Shown piece after piece: positions 21,944-55,518 of a stretch of 64,000 bases of DNA. The stretch's first letter is position 1, and every line of letters starts with the position of its first letter. The translations under genes were made by a program, and so were the position numbers. Below the pieces are notes generated by a model. That model saw nothing but the letters and a program-made list of their open reading frames with translations, was not told where the DNA came from and ran no database searches. This stretch comes from Candidatus Fimicola merdigallinarum (GTDB lineage: Bacteria; Bacillota; Clostridia; Lachnospirales; Anaerotignaceae): assembly GCA_017694425.1 (NCBI GenBank), contig JADIMX010000078.1, forward strand, positions 1,351 to 65,350, read 5' to 3'.

Positions 21944-23074
21944 ATGAATTTATTAATGAAAAGAGGCTTTTTTAATTTAAAAGGAATTGTTTCTTGTTTA
22001 GTTGTTGCAGGACTTATGACATCAACTGTTTTTGGTGCTGAAAGTAAAGGTGGCGAAGTTAGAGTTATAACTTACGAGGAGGCAATAGACCTTGCCACAA
22101 AGGAAAACTCAAGCTTAAAAGAAATAGCGGATACATTAGATTACATAAACGATACAAAAGAGCTTATGTTCTCTGGTACAAATTATCCAATGCTCCCTGA
22201 TGACGGTAGCAACTATCTTGTTACAGCAGCTAGATTTCAGCGATTAAGTGCTGTAAATAGTCTTACTACACAGCAGAAAAATTTACGTCTTACAAAAGAG
22301 GTTACTGACCTTTCCATAAAAGCAGGGGTTAAAGGTGAAATGACAACTATCACTACCTTTGAAAACAATTATGACCTTGCAAAAGAGGGCTTAGACCTTG
22401 CAGTACAACAGCTTTCACAGAAAAGCACAATGTACCGTCTTGGAATGATAAGCAAAGTTGACTATGACAAGGCTGTTAAAGATGTGGAAAGTCAGAGAGA
22501 ACAGCTTAAACAGTTGGAAATGACTATCGAGCAGGAGTATAATTCTTTAAGAAAGCTTCTTGGACTTAATGAAGACGAAAAAATTCAGATAGAGTACAAT
22601 GTGGAGTATGAACCTGTTGAAACTGTGACAGATATGGCATCTTTCGTAAATACAAAGGTTAAAACTGACCTTGCACTTAGAATTGAGGAAGAAAACGTTA
22701 AATCTGCATCTTTTGGACTTAATCTTTTTGTAGATACAGGCAACGGAACAGATTACGATAGACAGGAGCTTGATGTTAAATCAGCTGAGAGAAAATACAA
22801 AAACAATGTTTTAGCTAAAGAAAATAGTATTATAAATGCTTATATTGGATTACAGAATACAGAAACTGAAAGAAAAGTTTTAGAGAATAATCTTGCGCAG
22901 GCAAAAGCTGACCTTGAAACAGCAAGAATTAATTACGAGGTTGGCAATATAACAAAATTACAGTATGATAGTGCAAATATGGCTGTTAAGCAGGCTGAGT
23001 TTGCTATTGAGCAGAACACTTTAACTCACGATATAAATAAGTTTATGCTTGATAATACTTGCCTTCTTCAGTAA
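21944..23074 (+). CDS. TolC-like (outer membrane efflux protein family) protein
   Basis: Signal-like N-terminus. ITYEEAIDLATKENSSLKEIA opening and two coiled-coil repeats with the Y..G.I..L.Y pattern (YRLGMISKVDYD, YEVGNITKLQYD), typical of OEP family repeats. Confidence 0.6.
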   Translation: MNLLMKRGFFNLKGIVSCLVVAGLMTSTVFGAESKGGEVRVITYEEAIDLATKENSSLKEIADTLDYINDTKELMFSGTNYPMLPDDGSNYLVTAARFQRLSAVNSLTTQQKNLRLTKEVTDLSIKAGVKGEMTTITTFENNYDLAKEGLDLAVQQLSQKSTMYRLGMISKVDYDKAVKDVESQREQLKQLEMTIEQEYNSLRKLLGLNEDEKIQIEYNVEYEPVETVTDMASFVNTKVKTDLALRIEEENVKSASFGLNLFVDTGNGTDYDRQELDVKSAERKYKNNVLAKENSIINAYIGLQNTETERKVLENNLAQAKADLETARINYEVGNITKLQYDSANMAVKQAEFAIEQNTLTHDINKFMLDNTCLLQ

Positions 23075-23129
23075 TGTGAATAAAATCACTTTTTTGGAAA
23101 ATAATATTTCCAAAGGAGTGATTTTTTTT

Positions 23130-24587
23130 ATGGCGAAAAATCTTTCAGAAAGTTTAGATAGGAATATTGAGTATATACGATATGTGTTTTCTGACTGCGA
23201 AGATATAGTTTACAGGGAGTTTTTTGCAGGCTGTAAAATGTGCCTTGTGTATATAGATAACATTATAAATAATACTTCCATAGAGGAGTCTATACTCACA
23301 AACCTTATGAATAGGTCGGATATGTGGGGTGACGGTAACGAGTTTATCGAAAAAAGCATATCTGAGGTTATATCTGTAAAAGACGGTAAGAAGATTTATA
23401 CCTTTGATGATGTGTTTAATGCCATTCTTTCCGGCGATACAGTTATACTCTGTGATGATGCTAACGTGGGCATACAGGCATCAACAAGGGGATACCCTAC
23501 AAGGGGCGTTGGTGATGTAAGAACGGAGGTTTCCATACTTGGCTCTAAAGATGCTTTTAACGAGGCTTTAGCTATAAATATCGTTCTTATCAGAAGAAGA
23601 ATAAAAGATTATAGGCTAAAGATGAAAAGAAAGAGTGTGGGTACAAATACAAAGACTGATGTTGGTATTATGTATATGGAGGGTATTGTAAATAAAAATG
23701 TCCTTAAAAGTATAGAGAGAAGTATAGAAAATATAGATATTGACGGTATTTACGATAGTGGCTATATGGAACAGCTTATGGAGAAAAATGTTTTAAGCCC
23801 ATTCCCGCAGATACAGATTACAGAAAGACCGGATAAGGTTGCCTCATCACTTATGGACGGACGAGTTGCAGTTGTGGTGGATAATTCACCTTTTGTAATA
23901 CTTTTGCCAGCACCTTTAAATGAGTTTTTTCAGTCGGCTGATGATTATTACGAGCGTTGGGAGATAATGAGCTTTCTTAGATTTCTAAGGTATGTAGGCT
24001 GTTTTTTAGCTATTGCTCTTTCGGGACTTTTTATAGCTTTTGCTGTCTATAATCCATCAATGTTGCCGGTTTCATTGGCACTTAAAATTGCCGGAAGTAG
24101 GCAGAATATACCTTTCCCAACAGCAACAGAGATTATAGTAATGGAGATAGCCTTTGAGCTTTTAGTTGAGGCAGGTATAAGACTTCCGTCGCCGGTAAGC
24201 TCCACCATAGGTATTGCTGGAGGTATAATAATCGGTCAGGCAGCAGTTGAAGCAGGTATAGTAAGTCCGGTTATAATAATAATTACTGCTCTTACAGCTA
24301 TATGTACCTATGTTGTGCCTAATACATCTGTCACAGCCGGTATAAGAATATTTAAGTATATAGTCATATTGCTTTCGGCGTTTTTAGGGCTTTTCGGCTT
24401 TTGGGTAGGAATACTTCTACTACTTATTCATCTTTCAAATATGGAAACTTTCGGCGTGCCTTATCTTTATCCTTTCTGCTCCGGCTCACAAAATGGCTAT
24501 AGCGATTTAAAGGATAGTATATTTAGATTTCCTATATTTAGTATGAAGAAAAGACCGGTATATGCCGATAGAGAGGAGGAGAAGTAA
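23130..24587 (+). CDS. Spore germination receptor subunit A (GerA/GerKA family)
   Basis: Contains ITERPDKVASSLMDGRVAVVVDNSPFVILLPA and C-terminal TM helices. ATG behind AAAGGAG. Confidence 0.85.
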   Translation: MAKNLSESLDRNIEYIRYVFSDCEDIVYREFFAGCKMCLVYIDNIINNTSIEESILTNLMNRSDMWGDGNEFIEKSISEVISVKDGKKIYTFDDVFNAILSGDTVILCDDANVGIQASTRGYPTRGVGDVRTEVSILGSKDAFNEALAINIVLIRRRIKDYRLKMKRKSVGTNTKTDVGIMYMEGIVNKNVLKSIERSIENIDIDGIYDSGYMEQLMEKNVLSPFPQIQITERPDKVASSLMDGRVAVVVDNSPFVILLPAPLNEFFQSADDYYERWEIMSFLRFLRYVGCFLAIALSGLFIAFAVYNPSMLPVSLALKIAGSRQNIPFPTATEIIVMEIAFELLVEAGIRLPSPVSSTIGIAGGIIIGQAAVEAGIVSPVIIIITALTAICTYVVPNTSVTAGIRIFKYIVILLSAFLGLFGFWVGILLLLIHLSNMETFGVPYLYPFCSGSQNGYSDLKDSIFRFPIFSMKKRPVYADREEEK

Positions 24588-25658
24588 ATGTTTTCTTCTA
24601 ATAATAAAATATCGGTGCGACAGTTACAGGTTTTTATAATATTGAATGGTATTGCTGTTGCACTTACATTACTTCCAAGATTTTTGGCAAATACTGTGGG
24701 AAACTTCGGTTTTTTAATGATACTTATTTCAGGGATTTTGGTAGCCTTTTTCGTGTCGGCTGTGCTGTCTGTCTTTAATAGAGTTGGAGAACGTGATTTT
24801 AAAGGTGTAATTGAGTATGCTTTCGGCGAGAAAGTGGGAAAGGTTTTGTGCTTTATTATATCTTTAAAAATGGTTATTTCCGGTGGGCTTATGCTTAGGA
24901 TACTTTGCGAGGTTATAAGGGAAACGGCACTTTTTAAAACCCATATAAGTATAACAGCATTAATTATAATTGGTCTTTGTGTATATGGCTTAAAAGGTGG
25001 AGTTGAGGGCTTTTCTAGGCTTTGCGAAGTTATATTTATAACATCTCTTGTACCTATTTTAATTGTGTTTATATCGGCTATAAAGGATACAGACTACACT
25101 AATATATTACCTATATTTGATTTTAGGGATAGTAGCTTGTTGTATGGATTTATTGTAAGTCTTTCGGTTTTCTTTGGTGTGGAAAATGTGTTTTTCCAGT
25201 ATAGCTATGTAAATAGGAAACGGGGAACGAGTAGTGTATTTTTGGCTATTTTGGTGCTTTCCATATGTGCCTCAGTATCCTACTTTTTTACAGTCACAAG
25301 GTTTGGTCATATTACCGCAGGTCTTAGAACTTTTCCTACTATAACAATGCTTGATACTATTGAAATTGCAGGGGCATTCATAGAAAGACAGTTTGTATTT
25401 GTAATATGGGCAGTTATATCCTCATCTTTTGTGTTTATAAACTCATCACTTGTTTTTAGTCAGGGAGTTAAAAGGGATTTGAAAAGTACTGTATTTTTCT
25501 CTGTAATTCTATTTGCTACTTGCCTTTTACCTACAAGTTTATCACAGGCCTTAAGTTGGTTTTTCGGTGTTAATATTTTCGGTGGCGTATTTTCGGTTAT
25601 AATTTTGCCCCTTATACTTTGTGGCTATATTCTTTTGAAAGGGGGTAGGGAAAGTTGA
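24588..25658 (+). CDS. Spore germination receptor subunit B (GerAB-type permease)
   Basis: N-terminal KISVRQLQVF motif and about 10 TM helices. Start abuts the upstream stop (TAAATG). Confidence 0.8.
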   Translation: MFSSNNKISVRQLQVFIILNGIAVALTLLPRFLANTVGNFGFLMILISGILVAFFVSAVLSVFNRVGERDFKGVIEYAFGEKVGKVLCFIISLKMVISGGLMLRILCEVIRETALFKTHISITALIIIGLCVYGLKGGVEGFSRLCEVIFITSLVPILIVFISAIKDTDYTNILPIFDFRDSSLLYGFIVSLSVFFGVENVFFQYSYVNRKRGTSSVFLAILVLSICASVSYFFTVTRFGHITAGLRTFPTITMLDTIEIAGAFIERQFVFVIWAVISSSFVFINSSLVFSQGVKRDLKSTVFFSVILFATCLLPTSLSQALSWFFGVNIFGGVFSVIILPLILCGYILLKGGRES

Positions 25659-26716
25659 GAAAAGTTTTTATATTGTGTGTATTTTGCTGTATTTTTCTTT
25701 CTGGCTGTATGGATAAAACTGAAGCAGAGGATAGGGGCTATGTAATAACTGTGGGAGTTGATATGGGGGAAAATGAGAGATACGATATATCTTTTGTTAC
25801 TGCTGACCTTTCCGGTGACGGTAGCGATATAAAAGGTAAGGTTATAAATGTTTCGGCAGATAGCATTGTGGAGGCATTGAAAAAAGGAGATAGTAATACA
25901 AATAAACTTTTATATTTGGGACAGCTTAAAACTGTTGTTTTAGGTGAAAGCATTTTAGGTGATAGTGAGGGGCTTTATGAATTTTTAAGTCAGCTTGAAA
26001 ATAATAGAGATGTGAGTATAAAAACTATAATGCTTGGAACGGAGAAGAAAGCATCAGAGGTTACGAAAGAAATATCGGAAAAGGAATTTTCGGCTGGGGT
26101 ATATATATATGATTTTTATAAAAATTCGGCTGAAAAGACTGCTTTTACGGAAAAAATGGAGCTTGAAAACTTTATATCAAGTATAAGGGAAAATAAGAGC
26201 GTTACAGTGCCCCTAATAGATTTTAATGATGACGATATAAAGATAGAGGGGGCAATTATTGTAGGTGAAAATGGAGTTAGTAGGAAGATTGAAGATAAAG
26301 ATGTTATGAGCGATATATGGCTTAAAAATAAGGGTGAGGGAGCTGTTATCGTAAATGAGGAGGGAGATACACTATCTATACTTGATAACTACTGTAAGTA
26401 TAAGTTTTATGAGAAAGATGGAAAGCTTTTTTGCGATATAAATATAACTGGGCGAGGTAGTACGGATAGCCTTTATAATGGTGGAAATACTGGGGATTTA
26501 GAGGGCTATTTTGAGAATGTTATGGAGGAAGATATAGAAAGTTATATAAACCTTTTGCAGAAAGATTTAAAACTTGACCCACTTGGCTTTTCCAGAAAAC
26601 TTAGGAAATATAAAAATAATCTTTATTATAAGTACGGTGAGGATAATTCCTTTTATAATATGAATTTCAATATTAATTGCGATATAAAAATAAAAAGTAT
26701 TGGAATGGGTGGTTAA
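25655..26716 (+). CDS. Spore germination receptor subunit C (Ger(x)C lipoprotein)
   Basis: Lipobox FLSGCM. The AEDRGYVITVGVD opening is typical of GerAC family. 4-nt overlap with the B subunit gene. Confidence 0.8.
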   Translation: MRKVFILCVFCCIFLSGCMDKTEAEDRGYVITVGVDMGENERYDISFVTADLSGDGSDIKGKVINVSADSIVEALKKGDSNTNKLLYLGQLKTVVLGESILGDSEGLYEFLSQLENNRDVSIKTIMLGTEKKASEVTKEISEKEFSAGVYIYDFYKNSAEKTAFTEKMELENFISSIRENKSVTVPLIDFNDDDIKIEGAIIVGENGVSRKIEDKDVMSDIWLKNKGEGAVIVNEEGDTLSILDNYCKYKFYEKDGKLFCDINITGRGSTDSLYNGGNTGDLEGYFENVMEEDIESYINLLQKDLKLDPLGFSRKLRKYKNNLYYKYGEDNSFYNMNFNINCDIKIKSIGMGG

Positions 26717-26764
26717 TGTATAAAAATATTTTCTGTGTCAATAATTCCTATTGAGGTGATAAAG

Positions 26765-27472
26765 GTGGGAAATATTTATAATACATTTAAGAAAATATGG
26801 ATTAGAGAGGGGAAATATATAGCGGTATCATTATTATTAGGTTTTGTTATAGCTTTAAGTTTTGCAATTATATCTTCTTATAGATATAGCGAAAGAATTC
26901 AAAGTGATATTGCAAAAAAGGTGGTTCGTTTTCACGTTTTAGCTAATAGCAACTCCCCTTATGATATAGATTTAAAATATAAAGTAAGAGATGCAGTTAT
27001 TGAATATACAAAGAATTTTAAAGATTATAAAGATAGAGAAGAATTTATTGGGATTTTAAGTGAAAATATTGATAATATAAAAAATATTGCCGACAATACT
27101 TTAGCTATGAATAACAGTAATTATAAAACTAAGGTGTTTTTAAGTAACGATATATTTCCTTATAAGGAGTATGGCAGTGTTTCTTTTCCGGCAGGAGAAT
27201 ATTTAGGTCTTAGGATAGAAATAGGCGAGGGCAAAGGCGATAATTGGTGGTGCGTTATGTTTCCGTCTATGTGCTTTACAGATGAAAGTTGTCAAAGTGT
27301 GGAAGATGAGGGACTAGAAAATTTAAAAGATACACTTGATTTTGAGGAGTACAGTATAATTACTTCTAGAGATAGCGAAAACGTAACTCCTAAAATGAAG
27401 TTTAAGGTTGTTGAAATGTGGCAAGAGAGGAAATATAGTAGTGATGACTTTGTTACAAACAGTGATAAGTAA
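26765..27472 (+). CDS. spoIIR: Stage II sporulation protein R
   Basis: Contains VRFHVLANSNSPYDIDLKYKVRDAV and GDNWWCVMFPSMCF motifs. The start is uncertain: GTG at 26765 behind GAGGTG, or GTG at 26735. Confidence 0.8.
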   Translation: MGNIYNTFKKIWIREGKYIAVSLLLGFVIALSFAIISSYRYSERIQSDIAKKVVRFHVLANSNSPYDIDLKYKVRDAVIEYTKNFKDYKDREEFIGILSENIDNIKNIADNTLAMNNSNYKTKVFLSNDIFPYKEYGSVSFPAGEYLGLRIEIGEGKGDNWWCVMFPSMCFTDESCQSVEDEGLENLKDTLDFEEYSIITSRDSENVTPKMKFKVVEMWQERKYSSDDFVTNSDK

Positions 27473-33759: not shown

Positions 33760-34024
33760 TCTGTGCTAGCCGGGGCGGTAGTGGTGCCCTGTACTCTCAA
33801 TCCACTATAGTGAGGGTGATGCCTACTCTAGGCTTTTCAGGTTAGAGTCTGCCCTTTTAAGATGGCGTTGAAGACTGAGTCTTGTGCAACAGCAACCTGT
33901 GAACCGTGTCAGGTCCGGAAGGAAGCAGCACTAAACAGCCCCTGTTGTGTGCCGCAAGGTCGCTTAGTCTGAGTTGTCGAGACTGGTAACGTCTGGTTTG
34001 GACTGTCGAAAGTAGGTGCACAGA
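33760..34024 (+). ncRNA. ffs: Signal recognition particle RNA, long (Bacillus/Clostridium) type
   Basis: The universal domain IV motif GTCAGGTCCGGAAGGAAGCAGC is present. The 5' TCTGTGC pairs with 3' GCACAGA. The location immediately downstream of tadA is conserved in Firmicutes. Ends are approximate. Confidence 0.85.
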
Positions 34025-44677: not shown

Positions 44678-44761
44678 GTGGATATGGTGGAATTGGCAGA
44701 CACGCAAGATTCAGATTCTTGTCACCTTTCGGTGGTGCAGGTTCAAGTCCTGTTATCCACA
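44678..44761 (+). tRNA. tRNA-Leu (anticodon CAG)
   Basis: Acceptor GTGGATA/TATCCAC. D-arm GGTGGAATTGGCAGACAC. Anticodon stem-loop CAAGA-TTCAGAT-TCTTG. Long variable arm, T-arm GGTTCAAGTCC. CCA is not encoded. Confidence 0.9.
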
Positions 44762-45319: not shown

Positions 45320-45503
45320 TAGATTTAAATTTTTGGAGCTATCTTTCGGTAGCTCTTTTCTATTTTTATTTAAAAAGATATTTTTAAAATCATTTAGAAT
45401 ATGATATACTATACATTAGCTTAAAATGTACGAGGAGGAAATTATAAGTTATTAAAAATATAGATAAATATACCTAAAAGTGATATGCTGTGTTTATAAG
45501 GAA

Positions 45504-46691
45504 ATGAGGACGAAGAAATTGTTAAAGAGTTACAAAACGGAAATTGACCCAACCTTGGAACAAATACAAAAAATCAATAGAACAGTAGGTACTTGCCGTT
45601 TTGTGTATAACTTTTATTTGGCTCATAATCAAGAGATTTATAAAAAAGAAAAGAAATTTATATCTGGTATGGATTTCTCAAAATGGTTAAACAATGTTTA
45701 TTTACAAGAAAATCCTGAATATAAATGGGTAAAAGATGTCAGTTCAAAATCCATAAAGCAAAGTATTATGAACGCCGAAAGAGCATTTAAACAATTTTTC
45801 AAAGGTAAAACCAAATTTCCTAAATTCAAGAAAAAAAGCAAATCAGACGTAAAAATGTATTTTGTAAAAACAGATTCTAAAACAATCATACAATGCGAAA
45901 GACATAGGATTAAAATACCAACCCTTGGCTGGGTAAAGATAAAAGAAAAAGGTTATATCCCTACAGACTCAAGCACTTATACAATTAAAAGTGGAACTAT
46001 TTCCTGTAAAGAAGAAAGATATTATGTTTCAGTTTTGGTCGAACAACCGACACCCCAGAACCAACAGTTAAAAAATTTTGGGTTAGGAATTGATTTAGGT
46101 ATCAAGGACTTTGCAGTTGTAAGCAATGGAATTGTAAAGAAAAACATCAACAAAACAGCAAGATTAAGGAAATTAGAAAAACAATTAAAACGAAAACAAA
46201 GATGCCTTTCGAAGAAATACGAAAGTGCAAAAAAACATAGAAAAAATAAGAAAGGAGAAGCTACTCGACAGAATATCCAAAAGCAGTTATTAATGGTACA
46301 AAGACTTCATCACAGAATTGAAAATATTCGTACAGATTATATCAATAAATGTGTAAGTGAGATAGTGAAAACCAAGCCATCTTATATTACTATTGAAGAT
46401 TTGAACGTATCTGGAATGATGAAGAACCGGCATCTTTCTAAAGCAGTTGCTTCACAGAAATTTTATGAATTTAGAATGAAACTGGAAGCAAAATGCAAAG
46501 AATATGGAATTGAATTGAGAATTGTAGACAGATGGTATCCATCTAGTAAGCTTTGCAATAAATGTGGTCGTATTAAGAAAGACTTAAAGCTTTCAGACAG
46601 AGAATATGTATGCCAATGTGGATATCATTCAGACAGAGATTATAATGCAAGTCTTAATTTACGAGATGCCATATCCTACAAAGTAGCATAA
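45504..46691 (+). CDS. tnpB: TnpB (OrfB) RNA-guided DNA endonuclease
   Basis: 395 aa. N-terminal KTEIDPT opening. RuvC-I GIDLGIKDFAV, RuvC-II ITIEDLNVSGM, zinc ribbon CNKCG..x..CQCG, and RuvC-III DRDYNASLNL. Confidence 0.9.
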   Translation: MRTKKLLKSYKTEIDPTLEQIQKINRTVGTCRFVYNFYLAHNQEIYKKEKKFISGMDFSKWLNNVYLQENPEYKWVKDVSSKSIKQSIMNAERAFKQFFKGKTKFPKFKKKSKSDVKMYFVKTDSKTIIQCERHRIKIPTLGWVKIKEKGYIPTDSSTYTIKSGTISCKEERYYVSVLVEQPTPQNQQLKNFGLGIDLGIKDFAVVSNGIVKKNINKTARLRKLEKQLKRKQRCLSKKYESAKKHRKNKKGEATRQNIQKQLLMVQRLHHRIENIRTDYINKCVSEIVKTKPSYITIEDLNVSGMMKNRHLSKAVASQKFYEFRMKLEAKCKEYGIELRIVDRWYPSSKLCNKCGRIKKDLKLSDREYVCQCGYHSDRDYNASLNLRDAISYKVA

Positions 46692-46870
46692 GCAAGCGTT
46701 TGTAGGTATGTACCGATGGCTAGTCGGGAATTGACGACTGTGGAGTGTACAAGAACTTGTGAGTAGTATCTGGATTTATCCAGTACGAAAGCATACACGA
46801 CGAAGCAGTAAGAAATGTCCGTAAGGACTTTCAACCTCTCGATATGGATATATATGTCTATATTTTGAGT
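46570..46870 (+). ncRNA. Candidate omega RNA (reRNA) scaffold spanning the tnpB 3' end and element right end
   Basis: The block is GC-richer and self-complementary. Stems: CCTACAAA(46675-82)/TTTGTAGG(46699-706), CCGA(46713-16)/TCGG(46724-27), CTGGA(46770-74)/TCCAG(46779-83), and GAAA-GTCC(46812-20)/GGAC-TTTC(46825-32). The position matches known TnpB omega RNAs. The ends are not determined. Confidence 0.45.
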
Positions 46871-46883
46871 AGCAGGAAAAAAG

Positions 46884-48698
46884 ATGTCTTTAAACAGACA
46901 GGAAAAAATAAGAAACTTTTGTATTGTTGCACATATAGACCACGGTAAGTCTACATTGGCTGACCGTCTTATACAGAAAACAGGTCTTTTGACTGAAAGA
47001 GAAATGCAAGAACAGGTTCTTGACAATATGGACCTTGAAAGAGAAAGAGGAATTACAATAAAAGCTCAGGCTGTACGTCTTGTATATAAGGCTTCTGACG
47101 GGGAGGAGTATGTATTTAACCTTATAGATACACCGGGACACGTTGACTTTAATTACGAGGTTTCAAGAAGTCTTGCCGCCTGTGAGGGTGCTATACTTAT
47201 TGTAGATGCTGCACAGGGTGTAGAGGCACAGACTTTAGCAAACGTGTATCTTGCTATAGATAATAACCTTGAAATATTACCAGTTATAAATAAAATAGAC
47301 CTTCCAAGTGCTGACCCAGAAATGGCTAAAAATGAAATAGAGGACATTATAGGTATACCTGCCGAAGATGCCCCTATGATTTCTGCTAAAAACGGTATCA
47401 ACATTGAAGATGTTTTAGAGAGAATAGTTACAGACATTCCAGCTCCTAAAGGTGATGAGAATGCTCCGTTAAAAGCACTTGTATTCGACTCAGTTTATGA
47501 CCCTTATAAAGGTGTTATAGTTATTATGCGTGTCTTTGACGGTACTATTAAAAAAGGTACAAAGGTAAGAATGATGGCCACAAAGAAAGAATTTGAGGTT
47601 GTTGAAACTGGTTTCTTTGGCCCAGGTAGATTTATACCTTGTGATGAGCTTAAAGCTGGTGACGTTGGATACTTTACTGCAAGTATTAAAAATGTTGCTG
47701 ACACTCGTGTAGGTGATACTGTAACAGAGGTTAATAATCCTACACCTGAACCACTTCCAGGGTATAAAAAAGTTAATCCTATGGTTTACTGTGGTATTTT
47801 CCCAACTGACGGCTCAAAATATCCAGACCTTAGAGATGCCCTTGAGAAACTTCAGTTAAACGACGCATCACTTTTCTTCGAGCCTGAAACATCTGTAGCT
47901 TTAGGTTTCGGATTTAGATGTGGTTTCTTAGGACTTCTTCACCTTGAAATTGTTCAAGAAAGACTTGAAAGAGAGTATAACTTTGATGTAGTTACAACTG
48001 CACCTAGCGTTATATATAAGGTATACCTTACAGACGGTACAAGTATGGAAATATCAAATCCAAGTAATATGCCTGACCCAGTTAGAATTGAATATATGGA
48101 AGAACCTATTGTTCGTGCTGAGATTATGCTACCTAAAGACTATATAGGTACAATTATGGAGCTTTGTCAGCAAAGACGAGGTGAGTATATAAGTATGGAG
48201 TATCTTGACGATATAAGAGCTAGACTTATATATGAAATACCATTAAATGAGATTATATATGACTTCTTTGATGTTTTAAAATCAAGAAGTAGAGGATATG
48301 CTTCATTCGATTACTCATTAATAGGATATAAAAGGTCAGACCTTACAAAACTTGATATTCTTGTTAATCGTGAGGTTGTTGACGCCCTTTCATTTATCGT
48401 TCATACTTCATCAGCTGTTGAAAGAGGTAGAAAGATATGTGAAAAACTTAAAAAAGAAATTCCAAGACAGCTTTTTGAAATACCTATTCAGGCTGCTATC
48501 GGTAGCAAGATTATTGCTAGGGAAACTGTAAGTGCTATGAGAAAAGACGTACTTGCTAAATGTTACGGTGGTGACATTTCCCGTAAGAGAAAACTTCTTG
48601 AAAAACAGAAAGAAGGTAAAAAGAGAATGCGTCAGATTGGTAGCGTAGAAGTGCCACAGTCTGCATTTATGAGTGTTCTTAAACTTGAAGAAGAATAA
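46884..48698 (+). CDS. lepA: Elongation factor 4
   Basis: Contains [21 protein letters not shown] and DTPGHVDF. The C-terminal LepA domain ends ...[12 protein letters not shown]. Confidence 0.97.
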
Positions 48699-48703
48699 TA
48701 TTA

Positions 48704-48731
48704 GGCGACGTGATATTCACGTCGCTTTTTG
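48704..48731 (+). terminator. Rho-independent terminator of lepA
   Basis: GCGACGTG/CACGTCGC stem followed by a T-run. Confidence 0.85.
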
Positions 48732-48738
48732 TGTATAA

Positions 48739-48997
48739 AATATAGATTTAGTTAATTCATATCCTGATATTACAGATGAAGAGAAGGATATATTAAGGTA
48801 TATAGCTGAAAGTGGTAAACCTCAGTCTGTTAACAGTATAAAGTATAGAATAGGTATTACAGAGTATAAGACAAGAAATACTATACGTAATTTAGAGAAA
48901 AAGATTGATTATAAAAATGGGAAATGGTCCATCAACTAAGTATATGATATCCATTAATAGCATTGATTATTTAGCATCATTACAGTTGATAAAATAA
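48739..48997 (+). pseudogene. Remnant of the C-terminal winged-helix domain of a larger regulator/ATPase-type protein, frameshifted
   Basis: An open frame with no start codon reads PDITDEEKDILRYIAESGKPQSVNSIKYRIGITEYKTRNTIRNLEKK. The +1 frame continues RLIIKMGNGPSTKYMIS, the typical end of such wHTH domains. The shift lies at an A-run near 48898-48902. Confidence 0.4.
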
Positions 48998-49569
48998 AAA
49001 GTGAAATAATTAAAAGATAACTTGTGATTATCTTATGAAAATCTTTTGATTTTTAATATATTTTAAGGTGATGTATATATTACATCATTTTTTTTATATA
49101 TTGTGGTTACAAGAATATGAGTTATATTTAACATAAATTGTTTTTGTGAATATATAACAATTTGTTATACATAATATAATAATAAATTTGTGATAAAAAA
49201 CAACAAAAATATTACGTTAAAACTAAGGAATAAACAGCTATTTTTATTCGTTCAAAACGAACATTACAAAAAATGTATATATTTTAATGCAATACAAGTG
49301 TAAAAATGTGTAAATTAACAACAAATTTAACATATTTTTATGCCTATATACACTAATATATCTAAAAAACTCTATAGATTGACAGGGGTTATCTTGAATG
49401 ATAGTATTTAATTTAATAATTTATAGGAAGTGGTTTGACATAATTTTATAATATCTTTTTTGCATAAAATTGGTGTGAACTTTTGTGTTGCATATTATTT
49501 TTTGGCATTATAACGATTACCATTTATTCTATAAATTTTGATTTAAAATATCAAAAGGAGGTAAGTGTG

Positions 49570-50512
<943 letters not shown>

Positions 50513-50529: not shown

Positions 50530-51012
50530 ATGTTGACGCTGAATTGGAATATAATTTGGATATTTGTAAACTTAATAGTTTTATATCTTCTTCTTAATAA
50601 GTTTTTATTTGGGAGAGTTCAAGATATTCTTAAGCAGAGAGAGGAACTTATAAACAGTAGCATTGAAAGTGCTAAGGCTAATGAGGAAATAGCTAAGGAA
50701 AATGTAGTTAAAGCACAGGCTATGGTTGACAATGCCAAAAAAGAGGCAGAAGAAAAAGCTAATAGTATAATCGAAAAGGCTAAGAAAGAAGAAAAAGAAC
50801 GTATAGAAGCATCTGAAAATGAGGCTAGACGTATTTTAAAAGAAACAAGAGAAATAGCAGAAATAGAGAGAAATAGAATTCTTGCCGAGGCCAAAGACGA
50901 TATGGTTACTATGGCTATGCTTACAGCTAGAAAAGCTGTTGGTACTATGGATAATGAGGAAAAAGAGAGAGAGCTTTTTGAAGATTTGCTTAAGAAGGTG
51001 GGAGATGCGTGA
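50530..51012 (+). CDS. atpF: F0F1 ATP synthase subunit b
   Basis: One N-terminal TM helix followed by a long charged helix. 160 aa. Confidence 0.9.
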   Translation: MLTLNWNIIWIFVNLIVLYLLLNKFLFGRVQDILKQREELINSSIESAKANEEIAKENVVKAQAMVDNAKKEAEEKANSIIEKAKKEEKERIEASENEARRILKETREIAEIERNRILAEAKDDMVTMAMLTARKAVGTMDNEEKERELFEDLLKKVGDA

Positions 51013-52773
51013 TGGCAGAGAACTTTACAAAGAAATTTTTTGAGGAAAATCGTATTTTGAAGGCAACTATTCATTATGCAAAAAGACCTTCTGACAACGA
51101 TTTAAATCAGTTAAAGAATATATTATTAAAAACATATGATGCAACAGAGGTAATATTAGAAGAACGCCAGAATGATGAAATTCTCGGTGGTTATTTATTA
51201 CAGGTAGGGGATAAAGTATTTGACAATACTTATAAACTTACATTTGATACTCTTGAGCGTCAGCTTAGAAAAGAAAAGGGTAAAGAGGACATTATATCAA
51301 TAATGAAAAGTGATATAAATGGCTTTGAAGGTGAGTTTTCCATTGAGGAAGGTGGATACATACACAGTATTCACGATGGAATAGTTTCTGTAAAAGGCAT
51401 TTCTAAAGCTATGTATGGAGAGATTGTTCTTTTTGAAAATGGTATTAAAGGATTAGTTCAGAACATAGATGAAAGCGAAGTTTTATGTATCGTTCTCGGT
51501 GACGAGGAAACTTTAACAGAGGGAAATCGTGTTATAAGAACTAAAAGAAGAGCCGGTATACCAGTAGGTGAGGGATTACTTGGTCGAGTTGTAGATGCTT
51601 TAGGTGCGCCTATTGACGGTAAAGGCGAGATTAAAACTGATGACTGGTACACACTTGAGAGAAAAGCTCCTAGTGTAATTGATAGACAGTCAGTAAATGT
51701 ACCTTTACAGACAGGTATTATGTCTATTGACTCTATGTTCCCTATCGGTAGAGGTCAGAGAGAGCTTATAATCGGTGATAGACAGACAGGTAAAACTTCT
51801 ATTGCCATTGACACTATAATAAATCAGAAAAATGAAGATGTTATCTGTGTTTACGTTGCTATTGGTCAGAAGGCTTCTACAATAGCACAGGTTATATCAA
51901 ACCTTAAAAAACACAAAGCTTTAGACTATACAGTTGTTGTTACAGCAAATGCTAGTGCACCGGCATCATTACAGTATCTTGCACCATACTCAGGTACTGC
52001 TATTGCAGAGTACTTTATGGAAAAAGGTAAAGATGTTCTTATTGTATATGATGATTTATCAAAACACGCAGTAGCTTATCGTGCTTTATCATTACTTTTA
52101 GAGCGTTCTCCAGGACGTGAGGCTTACCCAGGTGACGTATTCTATCTTCACTCAAGACTTTTAGAGCGTTCTTGCCGTCTTGATGAGGCTCACGGTGGCG
52201 GTTCTATAACAGCTTTACCTATAATTGAAACTCAGGCCGGCGACGTTTCAGCTTATATACCTACAAACGTTATATCTATTACAGATGGTCAGATTTTCCT
52301 TGAAAGTGACTTATTCTATGAGGGTATCCGTCCTGCTGTAAACGTAGGTCTTTCTGTATCTCGTGTTGGTGGTGCAGCACAGACAAAGGCTATAAAAGCG
52401 GTTAGCGGTACACTTCGTATTGACTTAGCACAGTATAAAGAGATTGAGTCATTCTCACAGTTTAGCTCTGAGCTTGACGCAAGTACAGTACAGCAGATAG
52501 AATACGGAAAACAGCTTACAGAATTACTTATACAGCCTTTATATAGACCTAAATCATTATCAAAACAGGTGGTTTCACTTTGCATTGGTACAAGCAAAAA
52601 ACTTTTAGGTATACCTAAGGAGAAAGTAAGTAAATTTGTTGAAGATTTCTATGAATATTTAGAAGAAACTTCTGCTGATATGATTAATGATATATTAACT
52701 ACTAAAAAGTTTACTGATGAACAGAAACAGGAAGTTTTATCTAAGTTAGAAGAATATAAGAAGGAGCAGGGAT

Positions 52774-52787
<14 letters not shown>
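51012..52787 (+). CDS. atpA: F0F1 ATP synthase subunit alpha with an N-terminal delta(OSCP) C-terminal-domain-like extension
   Basis: 591 aa. Residues about 1-90 resemble the C-terminal half of delta (LGGYLLQVGDKVFDNT...LERQL). The rest is full-length alpha (GRGQRELIIGDRQTGKT Walker A). The ATG overlaps the atpF stop (GTGATGG). Confidence 0.85.
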
Positions 52788-55093
<2,306 letters not shown>

Positions 55094-55113: not shown

Positions 55114-55518
55114 ATGCAATTTAATTTGAAAATTTCTTCTAGTAGTGGTCTTTTTTATGACGGACCTTGTGATAGCTTAGTTGTGCCTACCCTTGACGGT
55201 GAGTATGGTATACTTGCAAACCATTCATCTATGGTAATAGGTGTTACTGTAGGTATTTTGCGTTATCGTACAGAGGATAAGTGGAAATATGTTGCAGTAG
55301 GAGAGGGTTTTGCGCGTGTTGTAGGTAATACAGTTACTATGGTTTTAGATAGTGCTGAAAGACCTGAAGATGTAGATGCAAAACGTGCTGAGGAAGCTAG
55401 ACAGCGTGCCGAGGAGCGTATTGCCCTTAAAGAGAGCCGTAAAGAATACTATCGTGGTCAGATGGCTATGGCTAGAGCTAGAACACGACTTAAAATTAAA
55501 GAGAAAAAATTTATGTAA
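55114..55518 (+). CDS. atpC: F0F1 ATP synthase subunit epsilon
   Basis: 134 aa. Beta-sandwich domain plus a C-terminal helical hairpin. Last gene of the operon. Confidence 0.9.
   Translation: MQFNLKISSSSGLFYDGPCDSLVVPTLDGEYGILANHSSMVIGVTVGILRYRTEDKWKYVAVGEGFARVVGNTVTMVLDSAERPEDVDAKRAEEARQRAEERIALKESRKEYYRGQMAMARARTRLKIKEKKFM

Follow-up and report, generated by a model that had tools for sequence, protein, structure and literature searches.

A natural fusion that joins the delta C-terminal domain and the alpha subunit in an Anaerotignaceae F-type ATP synthase operon, and its possible bearing on peripheral-stalk number

Which protein does the work of delta in an F-type ATP synthase whose operon has no annotated atpH, and how many peripheral stalks might such an enzyme carry? 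Both questions are raised by a 64-kb stretch of DNA from Candidatus Fimicola merdigallinarum (Clostridia; Anaerotignaceae), hereafter the window, whose plus-strand ATP synthase operon encodes subunits a, c and b, then a single open reading frame (ORF) of 591 codons, then gamma, beta and epsilon. The delta C-terminal domain docks the C-termini of the b dimer, and the ion/ATP ratio is a central bioenergetic constant that was thought to be set only by the size of the c-ring. A previous interpretation of the window, made from its letters without database searches (the sequence-only reading), had proposed this gene order and had taken the ORF for a delta C-terminal-domain-like segment fused in frame to alpha. 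Both proposals are borne out: Pfam assigns every gene of the operon, and the ORF product matches PF00213 (E 2.1e-12) and TIGR00962 (745 bits) with no stop codon in between. In this protein the delta C-terminal domain continues in frame into alpha, and the delta N-terminal bundle is missing. We lean, with a slight preference, towards a functional fusion gene, atpH without its N-terminal domain plus atpA, which would supply both alpha and the sole delta-like module of an F-type ATP synthase that is ordinary in other respects, and would give rise to native multi-stalk complexes.

Structure and authenticity of the fusion protein

The fusion ORF spans 51009/51012-52787 on the plus strand. The GTG listed at 51009 is not conserved in orthologues, where it reads CAA (locus L004) or ATA (locus L005); the gene thus starts at ATG 51012, which yields the 591-aa product, and an exact look-up matched this ATG form but not the 592-aa GTG form. 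ATG 51012 is preceded by AAGGTGGGAG and has one base in common with the atpF stop codon TGA at 51010-51012 (TGATG), so that a 591-aa ORF with a start overlapping the atpF stop had been described correctly. As far as the sequence tells, the fusion protein is made from a single strong, translationally coupled start.

Profile searches, whose coordinates are numbered on the 592-aa GTG form, place the domain boundaries at residues 2-86 for OSCP and 92-586 for alpha. The first stretch matches PF00213 positions 88-172 of 172 with 47.9 bits (gathering score 22.3), and PF00213 positions 1-87, which correspond to the delta N-terminal helical bundle, find no match anywhere in the fusion protein; its score with the delta model TIGR01145 is 36.8, under the cut-off of 57.5. 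The second stretch matches TIGR00962 (atpA) positions 4-500 of 503 with 745.3 bits (cut-off 484.45). The Pfam domains of alpha follow in order, namely ATP-synt_ab_N (116-178, PF02874), ATP-synt_ab (236-451, PF00006) and ATP-synt_ab_C (458-582, PF00306), the Walker A motif GDRQTGKT is present, and the alpha part matches solved alpha subunits with E-values of 1e-150 to 1e-190.

On the plus strand, the delta part (residues 1-85 of 591) occupies 51012-51266 and comprises the end of the inter-domain delta helix, then the C-terminal alpha/beta domain. The junction RKEKGK (residues 86-91; 51267-51284) holds neither a stop codon nor a frameshift, and a complete F1 alpha, stop codon included, fills 51285-52787 with the N-terminal helix EDIISIMKSDINGFE, the beta-barrel, the nucleotide-binding domain and the C-terminal helical domain. 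Only about 3 residues separate the last position of the OSCP profile from position 1 of the atpA model; the delta C-terminal domain is joined to the alpha N-terminal helix almost without a linker, and this helix, which is the delta contact in wild-type enzymes, is retained in the fusion.

The fold agrees with the profiles. In an AlphaFold model of residues 1-120, built on a 58-sequence alignment and with a predicted local distance difference test (pLDDT) score of 75-82 over residues 11-70, helices (H) and strands (E) follow as H2-12, E15-22, H28-42, E46-53, E61-65, E68-71 and H78-88, which is the topology of the delta C-terminal domain. This model was used for the fold search instead of the full-length one, which was poor (9-sequence alignment; mean pLDDT 59). 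The 42 best Foldseek matches in the PDB were all delta/OSCP chains, headed by the delta of Bacillus PS3 (6n2y_I, E 1e-5). The proposal that the segment is the C-terminal half of delta is hence supported by profile and fold, yet needs adjustment at its border: the retained segment begins about 12-15 residues ahead of the globular domain, within the helix that links both delta domains.

The absence of the delta N-terminal bundle, also part of the sequence-only reading, was upheld as well. A tblastn search with six full-length deltas detected a delta N-terminal domain neither in the 64-kb window nor in the 11-17-kb loci of five relatives (L001-L005); all alignments begin at delta residue 75-82 or later. 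Nor is this domain hidden in subunit b, since b, with its normal length of 160 aa, matches its own models end to end (PF00430 over residues 8-136; NF009992 over residues 7-158, at positions 7-158 of 159). The C-terminal motif of b, LFEDLLKKVG, is similar to that in relatives with unfused delta.

The gene is well attested. Its exact 591-aa product occurs in 36 blocks of public assemblies; 23 contigs were inspected, and the operon is the same at the loci displayed. The product shares 100% identity with NCBI MBO8434497.1 (UniRef100_A0A9D9H452) from 'Candidatus Fimicola merdigallinarum', a metagenome-assembled genome (MAG) labelled Tyzzerella sp., where its annotation reads just 'F0F1 ATP synthase subunit alpha'. 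Among related genomes, the fusion was found in more than 100 protein clusters at 82-100% identity, all of 591-592 aa and all with PF00213, PF02874, PF00006 and PF00306; among them are Anaerotignum lactatifermentans proteins that recur on hundreds of contigs, one of 2.8 Mb included. The arrangement is identical in the isolate A. lactatifermentans DSM 14214 (L001). Five orthologues, whose identity is 81-99% for the alpha part and 70-99% for the delta part, are of exactly equal length and free of indels. In six orthologues the ORF counts 592 codons from the listed start, and a stop codon between the two parts is missing in six orthologues and many assemblies. The same protein in many independent assemblies and its indel-free orthologues show that the ORF is not the product of an assembly indel. 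The nonsynonymous divergence is 0.12-0.21 in the delta part and 0.10-0.15 in alpha, with synonymous divergence saturated; for the delta part of the close pair L001/L003, the ratio of the two (omega) is 0.025. Purifying selection acts on the delta part as strongly as on alpha. One protein of the A. lactatifermentans group (P0227, 639 aa, NCBI) departs from this length in that 48 residues of the alpha C-terminal domain (SQFSSELDTS...LCVATS) are repeated exactly in tandem, which is probably an assembly artefact.

Unfused relatives indicate where the fusion comes from. In L006 and L009 (labelled Lachnospiraceae or 'Eubacterium') and in L010 (Elusimicrobiales), alpha counts 502-512 aa and delta 168-177 aa, and the two are encoded by separate genes that overlap or abut and lie in different frames. 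Separate atpH and atpA are the ancestral state. A small indel at the junction would suffice to fuse the two genes; the fusion likely would have arisen by such an indel at the overlapping stop/start junction, together with the loss of the 5' half of atpH.

Precedents and spread of the architecture

The sequence-only reading had supposed this architecture to be undescribed. It is not: it was engineered in 2025, and a natural case in Acidaminococcus was noted on that occasion (PMC12229609). Ueno et al. (Nat Commun 2025;16:5410, PMC12229609) reasoned that the delta N-terminal domain sits on the pseudo-three-fold axis atop alpha3beta3 and so allows one peripheral stalk only. In the Bacillus PS3 enzyme, delta residues 2-104 were removed and the C-terminal domain was joined to the alpha N-terminus (PDB 9JC1; PMC12229609). 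The engineered enzyme retained all subunits, with a and b at about twice the normal amount; cryo-electron microscopy revealed a mixture of particles with one, two or three b2-a stalks, each canonically bound; and the H+/ATP ratio was 5.8 as against 3.0 and the equilibrium proton-motive force was halved, ATP being made at half the force (PMC12229609). Hence, the suggestion that a covalent link could stand in for the binding of the delta N-terminal domain to alpha is plausible, as the engineered equivalent assembles and works (PMC12229609, 9jc1_I).

The natural protein closely resembles the engineered one. Residues 16-583 align with residues 4-573 of 9jc1_I in one HMMER stretch (E 3e-183) that is collinear over 568 residues, and the sole gap arises from the natural junction being 4 residues shorter than the engineered linker. 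Both have a truncated delta joined to alpha, no separate atpH in the operon and an operon that is otherwise standard. They differ in that the window protein is natural, keeps about 12-15 more N-terminal residues of the inter-domain delta helix and has no Gly/Ser linker at its junction; the epsilon C-terminal domain, missing in the engineered PS3 enzyme, is present in the window operon. Stalk number and H+/ATP are measured values for the engineered enzyme and predictions for the window enzyme.

In their Discussion and Supplementary Fig. 9, the same authors point to a natural truncated-delta-alpha fusion in Acidaminococcus fermentans (UniProt D2RLW6; also G4Q3K6 and A0A1I2C5T3) and grade a multi-stalk structure of the natural fusion as 'highly likely' (PMC12229609). 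The window gene shares gene architecture and operon logic with this fusion as reported; the lineage differs, Acidaminococcus belonging to the Negativicutes and the window to the Anaerotignaceae within the Clostridia, in a comparison made by published description only. New here are a member from the Anaerotignaceae, no fewer than 69 clusters of the fusion in other lineages, its probably two or more origins, the full-length delta-alpha fusions and the b'-delta-alpha triple fusions, all described below.

Other known systems share single traits with the window operon. The F1Fo enzyme of Chloroflexus aurantiacus carries a pair of peripheral stalks and two a subunits (PMC12002316; PDB 9ITJ, 2025), with more than one delta C-terminal domain docked on the alpha N-terminal barrels, each with a b dimer and an a subunit, and thus demonstrates that multi-stalk F-ATP synthases occur in nature (PMC12002316). 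Unlike in the window, delta is free there: its shortened, four-helix N-terminal domain dimerises atop F1, alpha is not fused, and two stalks are the maximum. The mycobacterial b-delta fusion likewise is a covalent delta fusion within an F-type peripheral stalk, but it has b rather than alpha as its partner, keeps the delta N-terminal domain and is present once in each complex. N-ATPase operons, like that of the window, have no annotated atpH, yet they run beta-epsilon-...-a-c-b-alpha-gamma and lack any delta domain.

All three identities were considered for the window operon and rejected. An N-ATPase does not fit, as TIGR03324 scores 611.2, under its cut-off of 750.5, while TIGR00962 passes, and as the gene order is standard and not atpD-C-Q-R-B-E-F-A-G. 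A b-delta fusion of the mycobacterial type conflicts with the separate b of 160 aa and with NF009961 scores of 25 and 14.6 against a cut-off of 328. A free, dimerising delta as in Chloroflexus is at odds with the result that no free delta was found in the window and no delta N-terminal domain in the fusion.

We surveyed the spread of the fusion by an exhaustive phmmer search with residues 1-140 against 1.84 billion cluster representatives, which returned 252 matches; the best 150 were classified, and their counts include many fragments and so overstate the number of lineages. Nearly half of these 150 (69) are fusions of the delta C-terminal domain to alpha that begin no more than 15 residues from the start of the window protein. 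A further 12 have at least 65 extra upstream residues and are mostly full-length delta-alpha fusions, with two b'-delta-alpha proteins and one aberrant protein of 2115 aa among them; 3 are intermediate, 60 contain delta only and 6 alpha only. Word-indexed searches with the 130-aa N-terminus or its profile had returned short fragments only, and it took the exhaustive search and a full-length query to show the spread. The order a-c-b-[fusion]-gamma-beta-epsilon recurs in a Christensenellaceae MAG (P0076, 594 aa, L015), around P0135 (595 aa, L021) and on the contig of P0020 (L019), which has 55% G+C. The fusion is thus present also in many uncultured lineages, annotated merely as 'subunit alpha', which leaves an annotation gap of operons seemingly without delta. 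The supplements of PMC5709465 were searched to identify the delta-less Clostridia operons of that study, with no useful result.

Two further architectures emerged. In Erysipelotrichaceae MAGs, a protein of 689 aa (P0124; L017, 8001-10070) joins a full-length delta (OSCP 3-172 of 172) in frame to alpha, within an operon that has atpI, and the fragments P0038, P0048, P0061, P0065, P0070, P0072, P0086 and P0132 likewise belong to full-length delta-alpha fusions. Three delta N-terminal domains cannot all fit the F1 axis of such a complex; these proteins may be intermediates towards the truncated fusion. Two divergent proteins, P0152 (724 aa; L020, 1920-4094) and the 320-aa fragment P0122, combine ATP-synt_B (PF00430, with its transmembrane helix), the OSCP C-terminal domain and alpha in one chain. 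The operon of the former reads a, c, b (145 aa), triple fusion, gamma, and the 3' end of P0152 is frameshifted in the assembly. If the triple fusion is genuine, every alpha would carry a covalent stalk and three stalks would be obligatory, which would be the strongest natural hint of a selected multi-stalk trait.

A neighbour-joining tree of delta C-terminal domains, which lacks support values and offers a hint only, separates the fusions into two groups. One holds the window, Anaerotignum, P0007, P0008 and P0020/P0051, with the common N-terminal peptide MAxxF[ST][KR]xFF; the other (P0076, P0129 and P0135) is nested among full-length fusions and free deltas of the Lachnospiraceae type. The tree thus hints that the fusion arose at least twice and by a route through the full-length form, as far as can be judged from the domain sequences. 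The two halves of the window protein differ in their affinities: the delta part is 44% identical to the fused P0020 clade and 27% to free Lachnospiraceae deltas, whereas the alpha core is 73-74% identical to unfused Lachnospiraceae alphas (L006, L009) and 67% to the P0020 clade. A rate change after fusion, convergence or partial transfer could account for this discordance. The P0020/P0012 clade, represented by the contig with 55% G+C, may be of the Acidaminococcus type, an assignment that we infer.

The survey also turned up unusual free deltas. P0074 (364 aa) and P0082 (412 aa) have one N-terminal domain followed by three tandem C-terminal domains (three OSCP stretches by Pfam), and may represent a different means of providing b dimers with several docking sites. 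Five free delta-like proteins of about 133-139 aa (P0144, with 134 aa, and P0109, P0120, P0131 and P0141), some of which may be fragments, have about 47 residues before the C-terminal domain, an N-terminal region even shorter than that of the shortened Chloroflexus delta.

Stalk number in the native enzyme

With these precedents in mind, we propose the following mechanism. Each of the three alphas would carry a docking site for a b dimer, and the complex could bind more than one b2-a stalk, up to three, as in the engineered Bacillus PS3 enzyme. Each stalk would add its own proton-conducting a subunit at the c-ring and so raise the ion/ATP ratio about two- to three-fold, with the outcome that ATP could be synthesised at a much lower ion-motive force or, in reverse, more ions could be moved per ATP. 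On our analysis, it is somewhat probable that a substantial fraction of native complexes would have two or more stalks. The sequence-only reading had regarded a stator module on all three alphas as a difficulty. Every alpha chain indeed carries the module, but this is not a problem, as in the engineered enzyme it permits two or three stalks (PMC12229609). Rather, it is probably the point of the design.

A high ion/ATP enzyme would suit a fermenter that lives on small gradients of the Rnf-complex kind. Anaerotignum species, which are acrylate-pathway fermenters, depend on Rnf for chemiosmotic coupling, and the genome-scale model of A. neopropionicum was built with a fitted ATPase coupling ratio (PMC9205015). 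The stalk number accordingly bears on metabolic models of propionate producers, which must fit this ratio (PMC9205015). If the mechanism is true, the gear ratio would be tuned independently of c-ring size, ATP synthesis would be possible on very small fermentative gradients of the Rnf type, and an F-type enzyme with a high ion/ATP ratio would either draw ATP from small gradients or maintain a gradient economically in reverse. The design that was engineered in PS3 exists naturally, under selection, in a common family of gut fermenters with a cultivable type strain, A. lactatifermentans DSM 14214, and given this strain the natural multi-stalk hypothesis is directly testable.

Several points weigh against native multi-stalk complexes. 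The multi-stalk argument would extend to the natural fusion from one engineered enzyme, itself a mixture of one-, two- and three-stalk forms. Our literature search found no paper characterising a natural fused enzyme, and none in which an enzyme of the truncated-delta-alpha type was purified or imaged. The sequence gives no sign of the three-fold larger supply of a and b that a triple-stalk enzyme would need, and the Shine-Dalgarno hybridisation energies of atpB and atpF fail to separate fused from unfused operons. Room for three a subunits would depend on the size of the c-ring. The search for a free delta, in turn, was confined to the 64-kb window and the 11-17-kb loci of five relatives. Finally, the A. 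neopropionicum model ascribes the activity to a V-type ATPase, so that a physiological role for the family's F-type enzyme is as yet putative (PMC9205015).

The main rival explanation, which we regard as rather unlikely, is a single-stalk enzyme with two idle docking domains, in which the covalent tether merely replaces the contact between the delta N-terminal domain and alpha; a and b would be made in normal amounts, one of the three delta C-terminal domains would be occupied, and the ion/ATP ratio would be the number of c subunits divided by three. It draws on the structurally normal single-stalk particles that the engineered enzyme also gave (PMC12229609), on an operon with a single atpB and a single atpF whose Shine-Dalgarno strength is no different from that of unfused relatives, and on a b subunit of unchanged length with a C-terminus like that of unfused lineages. 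However, the engineered operon was otherwise unmodified and the extra stalks assembled spontaneously, about two on average (PMC12229609); because of this, single occupancy would need active limitation. Moreover, both the recurrence of the design in lineages that are probably independent and the existence of b'-delta-alpha triple fusions speak for a selected gain of function and against neutral compaction.

Two explanations that leave about one stator module, or none of consequence, in each complex fare worse. According to the first, the internal ATG at 51303-51305 on the plus strand (Met98 of the 591-aa protein, MKSDING) serves as a second start, or proteolysis acts at the junction, so that mostly free alpha would be made, along with a small amount of the fusion or of a free delta C-terminal domain, and about one stator module would enter each complex. 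Met98 is found in all 6 of the 6 closest orthologues at a position where unfused alphas have Leu, GAGGA lies 13 nt 5' of the ATG in the window, and the junction, RKEKGK, is a basic segment that is predicted as disordered or with low confidence. But this methionine is confined to the closest clade: P0007 has Leu and P0008 has Ala at this position (about 60% identity), and the clades of P0020, P0076, P0135 and P0129 have no equivalent Met. The GAGGA, seen in the window only, amounts to -6.0 kcal/mol with a long spacer, against about -2 kcal/mol in A. lactatifermentans, and is thus no conserved Shine-Dalgarno sequence. A chain starting at Met98 would in addition lose part of the alpha N-terminal helix, and the engineered enzyme works without free alpha (PMC12229609). 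The ATG is probably unused as a start, and the earlier idea that alpha is also made from it, like the wider two-product explanation, is very improbable.

The second holds that F1 is still capped by a full-length delta from elsewhere in the genome, the fused domain being an accessory or a redundant remnant. Its room lies in the genome beyond the window and the five 11-17-kb stretches that the search reached. Against it stand the purifying selection on the fused domain, as strong as on alpha, and the fact that the alpha N-termini needed by a delta N-terminal domain are already capped by the fused domain. For Acidaminococcus fermentans, the atp operon is reported with a delta-alpha fusion from which the delta N-terminal domain is missing (PMC12229609), and no Anaerotignum or Tyzzerella delta occurs among the named matches of the profile search, which is weak evidence. 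We consider an unlinked delta highly unlikely. A sequencing or assembly artefact, or a decaying pseudogene with a lost stop or a frameshift between an atpH remnant and atpA, finds a parallel in metagenomic fragments of close relatives that are frameshifted or chimeric 3' of the junction (P0002, P0004-P0006), but is effectively refuted by the identical 591-aa product in many independent assemblies, by orthologues at 76-84% identity that keep the exact length and frame, the isolate genome included, and by an omega far below 1.

Returning to multi-stalk complexes and taking the window together with the surveyed lineages, we advance a broader proposal as a tentative one. The Anaerotignaceae and other strictly anaerobic Firmicutes with such fusions might build two- or three-stalk enzymes with two or three a subunits and with ion/ATP ratios well above the c-ring range; the design might have arisen at least twice, probably via full-length fusions; and three stalks might be obligatory in the b-delta-alpha lineages.

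The operon and its genomic surroundings

The genes of the operon overlap or are tightly spaced on the plus strand. The gene atpB (49570-50256; Fo subunit a, 228 aa; PF00119, E 1e-45) has a strong Shine-Dalgarno sequence, AAAGGAGG, and is followed by atpE (50285-50512; Fo subunit c, 75 aa; PF00137, E 3.5e-20), by atpF (50530-51012; subunit b) and by the fusion gene. The end of the latter overlaps by 14 nt with atpG (52774-53685; gamma, 303 aa; PF00231, E 9e-83). Then come atpD (53702-55093; beta, 463 aa from ATG 53702; PF02874, PF00006 and PF22919) and atpC (55114-55518; epsilon, 134 aa; PF02823 and PF00401), the product of which has its C-terminal helical domain. The independent assemblies L011-L014 give the same call for atpB and the same 463-aa call for atpD.

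The operon is flanked by lepA (46884-48698) and by hemW/hrcA. A terminator-like hairpin of lepA lies at 48703-48727, and between it and atpB extends an AT-rich stretch of about 840 bp (48728-49569) in which we found no ORF above 37 aa, no atpI and no Rfam match. Its best promoter-like site, at 49379-49407 on the plus strand, consists of TTGACA, a 17-nt spacer and TAGTAT with an upstream TG. This site comes from a consensus scan only and is weak evidence, as promoter-like sites are no more numerous in the region than in shuffled sequence.

An IS605-family OrfB/TnpB gene lies at 45480-46691 on the plus strand, with HTH_OrfB_IS605, OrfB_IS605 and Cas12f1-like TNB domains, and is followed, just 5' of lepA, by a RAGATH-18 RNA (46737-46811, plus strand; 73 bits). 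The OrfB/TnpB insertion is present in assembly L011 and missing at the same site in L012, which shows it to be polymorphic in the population. Elsewhere on the plus strand, the window holds a large bacterial signal recognition particle (SRP) RNA (33761-34023), a tRNA (44678-44761) and a gerA-type spore-germination operon (23049-27472); spoIIR is present as well. These features are the ordinary housekeeping context of a spore-forming member of the Clostridia.

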